This document shows positions 2,308-6,130 of a DNA stretch of 64,000 nucleotides, piece by piece. A program made the position numbers and the translations under genes. This stretch comes from a virus (Duplodnaviria; Heunggongvirae; Uroviricota; Caudoviricetes). The notes under the pieces are model-generated. The model was given only the letters and a program-made list of their open reading frames with translations, did no database searches and was not told the DNA's origin. Where the stretch lies: the IMG/VR virus record IMGVR_UViG_3300021979_000001, positions 194,948 through 258,947 of that record, one strand, 5' to 3'. Numbering within the stretch: the stretch's first letter is position 1; each line of letters begins with the position of its first letter.

Positions 2308-2640
2308 TTATGACGGAACCCCGGCCCAATACACACCGGTATTACGATCCACCGACCCTCGGATATTTGTGTCGCCTCGGCACATTTCGCGGGCGATATT
2401 GGTCATCAATAGTAACAAATCGGAACTAACTTCATTGTCCAGAATAACCGGCCCATCTTTTGGCATACCGAAATCAACAACCACAATTGCAGTAGGGTGT
2501 TGATGTCCATTAACATGGACTGATGGCTTTACCGGCAGTTCCAGGCCATCAACGAACGTTTTCAATTCAGACACACCGTTGCGGCGCTTGGTGCGTTTCG
2601 TTGCATTGGTGGTTCTGGTCTTTTTTGCTTCTACAGTCAT
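2308..2640 (-). CDS. hypothetical protein with basic N-terminus
   Basis: 110-aa ORF followed by a terminator. Confidence 0.65.
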   Translation of the reverse strand: MTVEAKKTRTTNATKRTKRRNGVSELKTFVDGLELPVKPSVHVNGHQHPTAIVVVDFGMPKDGPVILDNEVSSDLLLLMTNIAREMCRGDTNIRGSVDRNTGVYWAGVPS

Positions 2641-2790
2641 ATTCTTAACCTATAAACTAAATTAAACTATACGTTCTTTGTTATATGGCGTAGAACGTTT
2701 AACACCATGATTTTGTTTTACCAAAACCGGCCTATCAAATGCAATATATTTTTGTTAACCAAACATTAAAACAATGGGATAAATAATTTT

Positions 2791-3120
2791 ATGTGTAAAG
2801 ATATTGACATTTGGTTGGAATATACAAAAGAAATAACCCCGATTGCAGATTGTGATCGGTTACATTTGTTGTGCCCGGAACCCAGTCTGACACTATCCCA
2901 TATTGGACATCATTCATATCTTGACTTGCATGGACTTAGTGTGCAGGCCGCATATAAGAAAACCCTGGAATTTATTGATCGTGCCAACCAAAATGGTTTG
3001 AAAAAAGTGACGATCATAACAGGAAAAAGCGGGGCCATTCGAAAAGAGTTTCCCGAATGGTTATCCCGCTATCATGTCACCGATATAAATGGTGGTTCGT
3101 TTTCAGTTAAGATCAGGTAA
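2791..3120 (+). CDS. Smr/MutS2-domain endonuclease
   Basis: LDLHGL...A...FI...VTIITGKSG.IR...PEWL...GGSF Smr signature; N-terminal DIDIW. Confidence 0.88.
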   Translation: MCKDIDIWLEYTKEITPIADCDRLHLLCPEPSLTLSHIGHHSYLDLHGLSVQAAYKKTLEFIDRANQNGLKKVTIITGKSGAIRKEFPEWLSRYHVTDINGGSFSVKIR

Positions 3121-3631
3121 GTTCGAGATTGATGGCATTCAACAGTTTAATGCCTTGCTGTTTGCATCCATCCGCCACCATCTCAACCAAATCATCAACC
3201 AGGATGGTGCAACCCATCTTTTTTGCAACCTTTGCTTTCCAACCCATCAAATCAGCAGCTTGTTGCCACAAATCATCATTGGTTACTTTAGCCAATTCGG
3301 TTGCATAGGTCAGTCGTGTTTCGCCGGGTTCGAGAACAGTCACATCCAGTTCAAACTCAACATTGATATATGCCATATACCAATTGGAGTTTTCCAAATT
3401 GGTTGTTGTTTTGAACACCCCATCAGCATATCCATATTGTGACAGGTAATACGGAATGTCGGCAACCGTATGATTATCCCGAAATGTGATGATGTGATGT
3501 TCCTTTTCTGGATTATCAATGATGTATTGCCGAAATAAAGTTGAATGTGGCCCTTGATGCAAGGTCAAATCAAAGTCCCAGCCGATTACGGCGTGGTTGT
3601 CAAGATGCTGTTTGACCTTTAAAAATGACAT
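3113..3631 (-). CDS. HAD-superfamily hydrolase
   Basis: WDFDLTL motif I, IITFR motif II, ILVDD motif IV. Confidence 0.7.
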   Translation of the reverse strand: MSFLKVKQHLDNHAVIGWDFDLTLHQGPHSTLFRQYIIDNPEKEHHIITFRDNHTVADIPYYLSQYGYADGVFKTTTNLENSNWYMAYINVEFELDVTVLEPGETRLTYATELAKVTNDDLWQQAADLMGWKAKVAKKMGCTILVDDLVEMVADGCKQQGIKLLNAINLELT

Positions 3632-3723
3632 TTTTGATTAACTCCATAAAAACAATTATTGACTTTTACCGAGAAATTGTGAAATTGTCAAATCTTAATT
3701 TAAAATTATGGTATTTACATAAT

Positions 3724-3900
3724 ATGTTCATATGTAACTGTAATGGCATCAACGAACGTAAAATTTCTGAAATGGTATCAAACGGTGCTAAAAAATATTC
3801 AGATGTATTCGCGATGACTGATACCAAACCATGTTGTGGTAAATGTAAACACGACATTAATGCGTGTATAAATAACACGGTTAATGACCACAAAAAATAA
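3724..3900 (+). CDS. bfd: BFD-like [2Fe-2S] ferredoxin (start probably ATG 3724)
   Basis: MFICNCNGI...CCGKC: CxC...CxxC cysteine pattern, 58 aa. Confidence 0.85.
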   Translation: MFICNCNGINERKISEMVSNGAKKYSDVFAMTDTKPCCGKCKHDINACINNTVNDHKK

Positions 3901-3902
3901 TA

Positions 3903-3932
3903 TTGACTGATGATACGATCATCACCTATATT
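3903..3932 (+). promoter_or_regulatory. sigma70-like promoter upstream of the structured element
   Basis: TTGACT-N18-TATATT. Confidence 0.5.
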
Positions 3933-3939
3933 AGTTTTT

Positions 3940-4575
3940 TACATATTGTCCAGGAAGTAATAGGGGCCACTTCCGCCCCAAAGCAAGTCCATCCGGGAGA
4001 TAACAGAGACCGGGGTTTGCATGGCAGGACAGCCCACAAGCCGGATGCATGATCCACATGGTTAAGCCGACCATGGCGAGGTTATGTAAACAGCCGCTTG
4101 CCACACAAAGGATGTGGACGAAGGCACCTTAAAAGAGGATAGTTATGTCTTGAGCATATTTGACATCTATCCACATATGCAACAGTCCACCAATCGCTTT
4201 GCATATGGGCTTGTGAAAACTAAATTTACCATTTTTACATAACCGTTGGACCTACGATACATTTGCCTGTGCAGCAAGGTTGTTTAACCCCGATGCACCG
4301 TTTGATTAGGATGAAATGTGAGGTCGAGATAGGGCTATACTTGTTGGTTACCGGGCAACCGCCAACTATCATCGTAAAGGTGATTAGTAGCTTATTGGTA
4401 GCGGGCTAAATGACTCAGGAAGTTATTTTTAATTCGCTTAATGTCTCTCCCTTGGACTAATTCACCACTATTGCATTCAATTGCTATTAGTGTTTGCGCA
4501 ACAACGATGTTGTGTCTATAATTTGAATTAGTCCAGGGGGGAGAAAGAGCATAACATCTGATCTAGGATGCATGT
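3940..4575 (+). ncRNA. large structured non-coding RNA candidate, class unknown
   Basis: No long ORF; locally GC-richer; more than 10 helices found by eye, including 4035-42/4208-15, 4080-90/4234-44, 4137-49/4162-72, 4174-82/4199-4207 and a 21-bp 4444-64/4524-44; GCAA tetraloop; G-U pairs favour the + strand. Confidence 0.7.
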
Positions 4576-4798
4576 TCTATTTTTTAATAATCACTGTGTT
4601 CATTACGTATTTTTCTTATTGTCTTTTTATTCCTTAAAAATCAACAAGAATGAAATTTACAAGCATATGTGAACGTTAGTGAACAGATGCGCTGTATAAT
4701 TTCTTCTTGTTGCGATAGGGTCTTAATGATTTTTTTCCGCAAGGAAAACAAATCAGAGAGACCCTTCCAGTTAATGTCACTCACGGATAATTACCATA

Positions 4799-5125
4799 AT
4801 GACCAAATACACTTCATTACACGGGAATATGACGATACTTATCGACGAACAAATAATTACAGATGGAATCAATATATTAAATATGATCAATAATATTTCT
4901 GTGTTGTCTTCCTTGAAAGGAATACATGGCCCACATATGATCTATGAAAAAATCATCATTGATGAATTACATGTCGATATAGATGCCACAATGTATTGGC
5001 TAAAGAATTTTGGACTAATCACGCCAGTAATGCAGAAATCAGTTGCGATTACACCAAAAGGAATTAAATCACTTGACTTATCATCATTTCTATCTACAAA
5101 TCATTTAATTCCAGTTAGATCATAG
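4799..5125 (+). CDS. hypothetical protein (possible winged-helix C-terminus)
   Basis: 108 aa; WLKNFGLI...AITPKG resembles a wHTH end. Confidence 0.5.
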   Translation: MTKYTSLHGNMTILIDEQIITDGINILNMINNISVLSSLKGIHGPHMIYEKIIIDELHVDIDATMYWLKNFGLITPVMQKSVAITPKGIKSLDLSSFLSTNHLIPVRS

Positions 5126-5134
5126 GGACATGTC

Positions 5135-5563
5135 ATGAAAAAATACGAATTACTTAACAAAAAAGCACGGTTTGATTATTATCTTCACGATACCTTCGAA
5201 GCAGGGATTATGTTAACCGGGTTTGAAGTAAAAAATATTCGAACCCATAATGTTAGCATTACTGAAAGTCATATCCGTGTGGAAAACGGAGAAGCATGGT
5301 GGGTTAATTCCACTATTGGTCATTCAGTCGTTAATATGTTTGATAAACACGAACCAACTCGTGTTCGAAAATTATTATTGCATAAAAATGAAATTGCAAA
5401 ACTGTATGACGCCGTGAATAAAAAGGGAAATACCATTGTTCCCACCAAACTATATGAAAACAATGGCGTTTTTAAACTGGAAATTGCCATTGCCACTGGT
5501 AAGAAAACCGTGGACAAACGACAAACCATTAAAGAACGTGAATGGAAACGTTCGGGGCATTGA
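5135..5563 (+). CDS. smpB: SsrA-binding protein SmpB
   Basis: NKKARFDY, EAGIMLTGFEVK, RKLLLHK.EI, GKK..DKR motifs. Confidence 0.95.
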   Translation: MKKYELLNKKARFDYYLHDTFEAGIMLTGFEVKNIRTHNVSITESHIRVENGEAWWVNSTIGHSVVNMFDKHEPTRVRKLLLHKNEIAKLYDAVNKKGNTIVPTKLYENNGVFKLEIAIATGKKTVDKRQTIKEREWKRSGH

Positions 5564-5665
5564 TAAAAATACCGATGATTTTTAGTCATCGGTATTTTTA
5601 ATTGGTAATATTAATTTAAATTATGATATATTTTATTTTCCCGTTAAAATATGGTTGTTTATATA

Positions 5666-6130
5666 ATGAATGAAATACTTATTGCTGATTTAGAAACCAA
5701 TGGCATATCACCAAGTGAAATCTATATTGTTGGTGTTCTGAATTATACGACTGATGAATATACACAATATTATCAGTCACTTGATGAAATATCAGTAGGA
5801 TTAATGCGATTAAATGATGCCAGATTAATTATTGGTCATAATTTCATCAAATATGATTCGACTACAATACGTAAGTTAACCGAAGGGGTAATTGATATTC
5901 CTGAAACCAAGATAATCGACACTCTTACCATGTCGAGAAAATTATTCCCGGACATGAAGAAACATTCCCTTGGTGAATGGGGTGATATTTTTGATTATCC
6001 CAAGATCGATTATAAACTTGGTTTTGATCGGTTCCATCCTGAAATGTTACCATACTGTGAGCGGGATTGTCGTTTGAATAAAAGACTATATGATTTCCTA
6101 ATCAGCCAGGAAACCAATAAATTATCGTAA
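5666..6130 (+). CDS. stand-alone PolA-type 3'-5' exonuclease domain
   Basis: ADLETNG (ExoI), GHNFIKYD (ExoII), IDTL..SR, HSL..WG, YCERD (ExoIII). Confidence 0.85.
   Translation: MNEILIADLETNGISPSEIYIVGVLNYTTDEYTQYYQSLDEISVGLMRLNDARLIIGHNFIKYDSTTIRKLTEGVIDIPETKIIDTLTMSRKLFPDMKKHSLGEWGDIFDYPKIDYKLGFDRFHPEMLPYCERDCRLNKRLYDFLISQETNKLS

Follow-up and report, generated by a model that had tools for sequence, protein, structure and literature searches.

A probably mosaic locus of a giant phage carrying smpB, a putative SmrB-clade mini-Smr gene and an apparently undescribed large RNA

The closest described counterparts of the locus analyzed here are bacterial SmrB, the transfer-messenger RNA (tmRNA)-SmpB pair of huge phages, and the large phage RNAs GOLLD and ROOL. 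A '--xxxa' motif in an N-terminal helix (EDQALF in E. coli) marks the proteobacterial SmrB clade; this helix hooks around uS2, the SMR domain without it shows no ribosome binding, and SmrB activity requires the DxH motif (bioRxiv 10.1101/2021.08.16.456513). The presence of tmRNA and SmpB in huge phages was reported earlier (Al-Shayeb et al. 2020, PMC7162821), and the basic C-terminal tail of SmpB, about 30 residues with KGKK and DKR stretches, is required for tmRNA activity (PMC4151336). GOLLD and ROOL are large ornate RNAs of phages (RF01998, RF03087; bioRxiv 10.1101/2024.12.08.627333). The locus in question combines a stand-alone SMR-domain gene (mini-Smr), a BFD-like ferredoxin gene, a large structured RNA and smpB. 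It lies within a stretch of 64,000 nucleotides (nt), hereafter the window, which spans bases 194948-258947 of a virus record of 457,165 bp, rated as complete.

The locus was found to be probably a mosaic and not an operon. An old block shared by a clade of giant Alphaproteobacteria phages, comprising open reading frame (ORF) 110, mini-Smr, a HAD phosphatase, the large RNA and an exonuclease, would have received two lineage-specific inserts, namely a BFD gene before the RNA and, behind the RNA, a cassette of ORF108 and smpB that carries a terminator of its own. SmpB would pair with the phage tmRNA, whose tag is ANDNVASNMAVAA, to give a complete trans-translation pair. The mini-Smr protein may bind ribosomes via its N-terminal hook and cut mRNA at stalled or collided ribosomes, and the resulting non-stop ends could feed tmRNA-SmpB, from whichever genome it is supplied. 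The HAD enzyme may act on phosphorylated ends or nucleotides, and the RNA would be separately transcribed and trans-acting, not a surrogate of tmRNA. The sequence-only reading had proposed that the phage may carry its own collision-sensing and rescue kit. The parts of such a kit (a putative SmrB-clade nuclease, SmpB and tmRNA) are present in the genome, but not as an operon-like unit, and a kit at the level of the whole genome, made of dispersed genes with different histories, is plausible.

SmpB matched PF01668 and TIGR00086 over its full length and exceeded the curated cut-offs of Pfam (167.5 bits, cut-off 27) and NCBIfam (173.2 bits, cut-off 130, and 162.5 bits, cut-off 119.1). ARAGORN analysis of the whole genome revealed 20 tRNA genes and one permuted (two-piece) tmRNA gene between positions 160209 and 160554, with the tag ANDNVASNMAVAA, and this RNA scored 134.5 bits with the Rfam model alpha_tmRNA (cut-off 50) and 137.6 bits with tmRNA_permuted (cut-off 47). 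The search for ssrA over the whole genome, which had been suggested as a check, yielded a canonical alpha-type tmRNA about 39 kb upstream of smpB, so that SmpB has a normal partner. Nothing related to rescue was found in the flanks of the tmRNA gene, and the RF-1/ArfB family was absent from the genome. A TnpB/IS605 OrfB-type gene was observed 2.7 kb downstream of the tmRNA gene (L006 8224-9528; genome about 163.2-164.5 kb). The best relatives of SmpB were Sphingomonadales proteins (55-59% identity); a search of viral contigs with the SmpB protein alone returned no relatives. SmpB is without the 13-residue N-terminal extension of its closest bacterial homologues, and its tail retains GKK, DKR and the Trp of EREW. 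Taken together, the Sphingomonadales-like SmpB and the alpha-type tmRNA indicate a host among the Alphaproteobacteria, from which smpB would have been acquired.

The features of the locus, with positions in the window, are as follows.

2308-2640, minus strand: ORF110, a GC-rich gene of 110 amino acids with no Pfam, NCBIfam or PHROG match, kept as a neighbour of Smr in relatives.
2791-3120, plus strand: mini-Smr, a stand-alone SMR domain of 109 amino acids (PF01713, 46.5 bits).
3113-3631, minus strand: ORF172, a HAD-fold phosphatase-like protein of 172 amino acids, as judged from motifs, fold match and homologues beside Smr.
3724-3900, plus strand: BFD-like [2Fe-2S] ferredoxin of 58 amino acids from the ATG at 3724, in a frame open from 3625 (PF04324, 37.8 bits).
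3903-3932, plus strand: sigma-70-like candidate promoter TTGACT-N18-TATATT before the RNA, a consensus match only (10 of 12 consensus positions).
3940-4585, plus strand: large structured RNA, copy A of four, with a homology-backed core at 3945-4572 (fold, paralogues and covariation).
4586-4798, plus strand: hairpin-rich spacer from the RNA to ORF108, with a 20-nt inverted repeat (4642-4661 / 4693-4712) and hairpins in the fold.
4799-5125, plus strand: ORF108, 108 amino acids of no family, with a winged-helix-like predicted fold and its stop 9 nt before the smpB start.
5135-5563, plus strand: smpB, 142 amino acids (Pfam 167.5 bits; NCBIfam 173 and 162 bits).
5564-5600, no strand assigned: perfect 15-bp hairpin (inverted repeat I3, 100% complementary) with flanking A and T runs, a terminator-like end of ORF108-smpB.
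5651-6130, plus strand: DNA-polymerase-type 3'-5' exonuclease-like protein of 159 amino acids (PF13482 and PHROG DNA-polymerase exonuclease families).

All four features of the sequence-only reading, Smr, BFD, the structured RNA and smpB, were thus confirmed, but its picture of 2.8 kb on one strand was incomplete, since the minus-strand HAD-fold gene (3113-3631) and ORF108 (4799-5125) had been overlooked. The ORF172 gene is convergent with the Smr gene and overlaps its end. By eye, the 3' end of the RNA near 4585 shows a hairpin followed by a U-run. Because the RNA and ORF108-smpB have separate promoter-like or terminator-like signals, the stretch appears, on present evidence, to comprise more than one transcription unit. 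No match to the region 2700-5700 was found by blastn among 50,697 phage records.

Relatives by gene content were jumbo phages of Alphaproteobacteria (Agrobacterium phage Atu_ph07 and Sinorhizobium phage Phosso) and a number of metagenomic contigs 240-570 kb in length. Individual loci and contigs are labelled L0xx and the IMG/VR records with the RNA G001-G005; L057 is part of G001 (415 kb). In L057, the genes for ORF110, Smr and HAD, the RNA and the exonuclease gene occur in the same order and orientation as in the window, with about 100-180 nt between HAD and RNA and between RNA and exonuclease, the latter gap being about 100 nt, and no homologues of BFD, ORF108 or SmpB were found at this locus. 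Since L057 has the same block order without BFD, ORF108 and smpB, the simplest reading is that BFD and ORF108-smpB are lineage-specific insertions into an older block; alternatively, these genes may have been lost in the other lineages.

SmpB was likewise not found in the other Smr contexts (L011, L012 and L030-L033) within the DNA stretches examined, which for L011 and L012 are parts of longer metagenome contigs. The complete genomes of Atu_ph07 and Phosso kept Smr and HAD with no SmpB, and contained no copy of the RNA detectable with R1 and R2, two covariance models built on its middle block and 3' block, respectively. An alpha-type tmRNA was present in Phosso. No RNA copy was found in L011 and L030-L033 within the DNA stretches examined. 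Smr and a copy of the RNA are 0.5-0.8 kb apart in the window, L012 (the RNA about 0.5 kb downstream of Smr) and L057, and 4.5 kb apart in L059/L067. For the majority of RNA copies, among them every bacterial one, no Smr gene lies close by. Linkage is conserved for Smr-HAD(-RNA) but not for Smr-smpB. The suggestion that the neighbourhood is a conserved unit could not be upheld, as the relatives examined have Smr without smpB; when synteny was checked, as had been suggested, the link to smpB was absent from the relatives and the Smr-RNA pair recurred in four phage lineages.

These results bear directly on the idea, also put forward from the sequence, that the four genes form one rescue unit in which the RNA is a non-canonical partner of SmpB. 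The RNA and smpB share a strand, with the RNA 550 nt upstream, and an SmpB with a short C-terminal tail and no N-terminal extension could fit a different RNA partner. However, a canonical alpha-type tmRNA is encoded in the genome, and no tRNA-like domain or other tmRNA feature was found in the large RNA: ARAGORN found nothing in the window and the Rfam tmRNA models gave no match, although the same tools do detect the true tmRNA elsewhere in the genome. The three other copies are distant from smpB and stand beside unrelated genes, and homologous RNAs occur in records and at bacterial loci where SmpB was not found; one of the five RNA-bearing IMG/VR records contains a permuted tmRNA. Furthermore, the syntenic L057 has no smpB at the same spot, and the signals of the RNA and of ORF108-smpB are separate. 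The partnership is therefore very unlikely, as is the single unit built on it. That the RNA is close to smpB does not count as evidence that the two are partners, and the true partner of SmpB is encoded 39 kb away.

The mini-Smr protein contains the N-terminal motif D-x-x-[LI]-W...V-x-P-[LI], followed by D45-L-H47 and T77-G-K-S-G81. An exhaustive HMMER search placed it in a family of proteins of 105-125 amino acids that align end to end and are phage-borne wherever long contigs exist, whereas a word-indexed protein search returned only the query itself. D45 and H47 do not vary across 26 family members; T77, G78 and G81 are also invariant in the family. The N-terminal consensus of the family is [DE]-D-x-x-L-W and then V-x-P-L, with an invariant Trp (K-D-I-D-I-W8 in the phage protein), and it corresponds, by motif only, to the '--xxxa' helix of SmrB. 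Longer relatives from the same search start with EEERALF or EEDRLYW, and the bridging relative P0241 matched the NCBIfam SmrB model with 54 bits over model positions 5-173 of 181. On the basis of the hook motif, the DxH motif and the end-to-end match of P0241, the most fitting description of mini-Smr is that of a SmrB-clade protein whose linker is shortened.

A complex predicted for mini-Smr and Novosphingobium uS2 scored 0.39, compared with 0.00 for the best control, which lends weak support to the proposed hook. At least 43% of contacts were shared between the runs, and the per-residue confidence (pLDDT) of the partner was at least 63. Of 80 solved complexes, 58 reached the pass mark used, as did 2 of 110 mismatched pairs; only 7 of the passing solved complexes, but both passing mismatches, scored 0.60 or lower. 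The pass may reflect likeness to, or memory of, the solved SmrB-disome structure.

Three further observations concern Smr proteins and their surroundings. The proteins P0137 (1139 amino acids) and P0270 (1564 amino acids) each gave seven separate matches to the N-terminal part of mini-Smr, in the manner of hook-motif repeats. In the phage-like contig L030, which carries a mini-Smr gene, IF3 and ClpX genes (region 1-1704) occur near topoisomerase genes. A methionyl-tRNA formyltransferase-like gene lies 2 kb from the Smr gene of L033.

Several observations weigh against the favoured reading of a mosaic locus with a SmrB-clade nuclease and a canonical SmpB. The loop of mini-Smr reads TGKSG, with a Ser that is nearly invariant in the family, where SmrB has HGHG, and the longer relatives P0241 and P0229 likewise read ITGKSG. 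No NCBIfam equivalog cut-off was reached by mini-Smr (19 bits with the SmrB model vs 128), and for this reason the protein is not filed as SmrB itself. The C-terminus of SmpB is about 9 residues shorter than in its closest homologues (...EREWKRSGH vs ...RDWKRdqaRIMRdhg), and because the tail is needed for tmRNA activity, the activity of this SmpB is assumed. SmpB was not found in any of the five RNA-bearing IMG/VR records (G001-G005), a weak absence given that these records are 8-72% complete. The RNA lies near Smr (0.5-4.5 kb) in four divergent phage lineages, so that a functional tie is possible. Finally, topoisomerase and exonuclease genes are found among the Smr neighbours in relatives, which makes DNA nicking possible.

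The last point can be extended to a reading in which mini-Smr nicks DNA in replication, recombination or an attack on the DNA of the host, similar to SmrA or the Smr domain of MutS2, with no role at the ribosome. Topoisomerase subunits and the polymerase-type exonuclease neighbour Smr in several relatives, and among solved structures the Smr profile fits the Smr domains of MutS2 and N4BP2 better than SmrA, with SmrB not among the matches. However, the N-terminal hook motif of the SmrA/SmrB clade is conserved throughout the family with its invariant Trp, the longer relatives fit the SmrB model end to end, and MutS2 itself is now linked to ribosome rescue (PMC10897456). We regard nicking of DNA as the sole role of mini-Smr as rather unlikely.

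The stretch from 3900 to 4600 that contains the large RNA is ORF-poor, with a G+C content (GC) of 0.40-0.47 against a background of about 0.32, and its folding energy gave z = -7.8 relative to shuffled sequences. An nhmmer search of the genome with region 3900-4800 revealed three paralogues, at 416078-415465 (minus strand), 305551-306023 (plus strand) and 126563-125964 (minus strand), each in an ORF-free gap of about 900 nt; the neighbouring genes encode a lysozyme, a coiled-coil protein and proteins of no family. Consistent with this, R1 and R2 together recovered exactly four copies from the whole genome. A weak fifth match of R1 alone (135728-135831, minus strand; 18.5 bits, E 0.18; none for R2) may be due to chance or represent a decayed copy.

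Homologues of the RNA were detected with R1 and R2 in the 485-kb contig behind L012, in the five IMG/VR records G001-G005, with two copies in each of G001 (415 kb) and G002 (240 kb), and in L065. They were also present in the chromosomes of Microvirga sp. VF16, Microvirga sp. M2 and Mesorhizobium sp. KR2-14, beside genes for a phage-type integrase and ABC-3C, or for a resolvase, Dam and DUF5131; no SmpB was found at these bacterial loci, and the gene content identifies the setting as that of integrated elements. In Microvirga sp. M2, the two RNA copies form part of an inverted duplication of 2.45 kb with 99.96% identity (L095 88-2536 and L096 141-2588), and resolvase, Dam methylase and DUF5131 genes lie beside one copy. 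A 193-amino-acid gene call of no family over the RNA homologue in L012 (8819-9400, minus strand) is probably a false call in GC-rich RNA, and a TnpB-like gene and an IS1595 transposase gene were noted near the Smr-RNA region of that contig. Pattern searches were also carried out. Two RNA patterns found nothing among viral contigs; a shorter hairpin pattern gave 44 viral matches, about the number expected by chance, of which 8 were confirmed by R2 (E ≤2e-7) and 7 of these by R1. Four matches to a pattern used on metagenomes were rejected as chance, since neither covariance model supported any of them.

The structure of the RNA was evaluated with an alignment of 11 sequences, ranging in GC from about 40% to 65%, and a consensus structure of 51 pairs. 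In this alignment, 92.4% of the cells were paired, compared with 36-41% when the 3' partners were slid by 1-3 columns, and changes on both sides were seen in 33 pairs, compared with 9-15 in the slid controls. The covariation score was 0.477 vs 0.119 or less, and none of 500 shuffles matched the observed values. The orientation of the RNA was fixed by G-U pairs on the given strand. Conserved elements include GACCGG, which forms a long-range pairing with the CCG of CAUAACCGUU, a GCUGG-bulge-CGG-GNRA-CCG-CCAGC hairpin, and UUUGACA within a hairpin.

No Rfam 15 family, GOLLD, ROOL, OLE and HEARO included, reached its gathering score on the RNA, and region 3800-4900 gave only chance-level matches at E values up to 10. 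RNase P, group I and II introns and an rRNA fragment were rejected as identities, there being no Rfam match and no gene interrupted by the RNA, and the omega-RNA of TnpB was rejected because no tnpB gene adjoins the RNA. A description of such an RNA was not found in a literature search. On account of the missing Rfam match and the missing description, the RNA is apparently an undescribed family, within the limits of that search.

The protein encoded by ORF172 shows the HAD motifs D19xD21xT23, T49, K132 and D146D147, all invariant in three homologues. Homologues convergent to Smr were found in Atu_ph07 (E 2e-19), Phosso (E 4e-14), L057 and L011. ORF172 had no Pfam match, and a Foldseek search of the PDB gave no clear match. 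The structure model (pLDDT 78.8) was matched best by HAD enzymes in VIA-align, with Z scores of 8-10.4 and a root-mean-square deviation of about 3 Å over 105-122 residues, and the matches include the 3'-phosphatase domain of T4 Pnkp (Z 9.7) and Pnkp1 (Z 9.0). ORF172 is therefore predicted to be a HAD-fold phosphatase-like protein, the fold match being generic and its substrate not readable from the fold. A second paralogue of ORF172 was observed at 298128-298613 of the genome (plus strand; hmmsearch E 3.6e-26); RNA copy C follows about 7 kb downstream of it, and two tRNA-Ser genes are 0.5 kb away.

The recurring neighbours Smr, HAD and RNA could also be viewed as a module of giant phages for RNA processing or repair, with the RNA as substrate, guide, decoy or scaffold and the phosphatase trimming ends left by the nuclease. 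The proximity of Smr and RNA persists despite protein identities of 33-40% and GC values that range from 35% to above 60%; the many HAD enzymes matched by the structure model include the phosphatase domains of T4 Pnkp and Pnkp1; and genes for RNA ligases and for a CCA-adding enzyme, as well as one with the annotation 'polynucleotide kinase', occur in the Smr neighbourhoods of relatives. On the other hand, Atu_ph07 and Phosso have Smr and HAD with zero RNA copies, and most RNA copies, all bacterial ones included, are without Smr or HAD nearby. The whole ORF110-Smr-HAD-exonuclease block is syntenic, so that adjacency may simply be inherited gene order, and the generic HAD matches disclose no substrate. 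Such a module is unlikely. A more elaborate version, in which the RNA is a new class of large RNA joined with the SmrB-like nuclease and the HAD enzyme in a three-part ribosome-directed or RNA-processing ribonucleoprotein, and the insertion of smpB was selected, is improbable.

The remaining genes of the locus were characterized by family, fold and homology searches. The BFD protein exceeded the PF04324 cut-off (37.8 vs 26 bits), and the ligands C-N-C and C-G-K-C are present in its translation. ORF108 belongs to no Pfam, NCBIfam or PHROG family; winged helix-turn-helix regulators were the Atlas structure matches to its predicted fold, with template modelling scores of 0.53-0.64, and this is taken as a lead only. 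The minus-strand ORF between Smr and RNA in L012 was compared with ORF108 as a possible counterpart and is not alike. Viral-contig searches with the ORF172 or ORF108 protein alone returned no relatives. Homologues of ORF110 were detected by tblastn near Smr or RNA copies in L057, L030, L012, L064 and L043; the GC of ORF110 is about 0.50, and a GC-rich hairpin was noted by eye after the gene, near 2249-2280. The exonuclease homologue of L057 (211-2), located directly after the RNA, is 47% identical.

In summary, it was already known that giant phages carry tmRNA and SmpB, and a shortened SmrB-type family, widespread in giant phages of Alphaproteobacteria, is added here, together with a full trans-translation pair in one genome. 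A collision-to-rescue pathway may thereby be tested as a phage-encoded function. The large RNA family shows strong covariation, has no Rfam model, reaches up to four copies per phage genome and also occurs in bacterial integrated elements; RNAs of comparable size and order are few, and each has so far brought new questions of biochemistry. The most valuable outcomes appear to be the apparently undescribed family of large RNAs and the mini-SmrB proteins of phages, which have the HAD protein as a conserved partner.

Compared with known systems, ORF172 resembles T4 polynucleotide kinase-phosphatase (PDB 5uj0, 1ltq) as a small cap-less HAD protein with DxDxT, T, K and DD, but it has no kinase domain, and the Z score of 9.7 is no better than those of many other HAD enzymes. 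The RNA, like GOLLD and ROOL, measures about 600 nt or more, is non-coding and richly structured, and is carried by phages and mobile elements, whereas it matches no Rfam family even at E up to 10, has different sequence motifs, can be present as many as four times in a genome, in divergent copies, and shows no link to tRNA genes. By analogy, our best guess is that it is a trans-acting RNA of the scaffold type, in the manner of GOLLD and ROOL.

In comparison with the tmRNA-SmpB of huge phages (PMC7162821), the two genes here are 39 kb apart, SmpB is about 9 C-terminal residues short, and its gene is an apparent recent insert, with none seen in five partial and two complete relatives; the likeness lies in a giant phage with SmpB and a circularly permuted alpha-type tmRNA whose tag ends in AA. 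Mini-Smr differs from E. coli SmrB in length (109 vs 183 amino acids), in the linker between hook and SMR domain (about 25 vs about 75 residues), in the loop (TGKSG vs HGHG) and in scoring far below the equivalog cut-off. Similarly to E. coli SmrB, it possesses an SMR domain with D-L-H and an N-terminal helix motif in which acidic residues are followed by an aromatic one.

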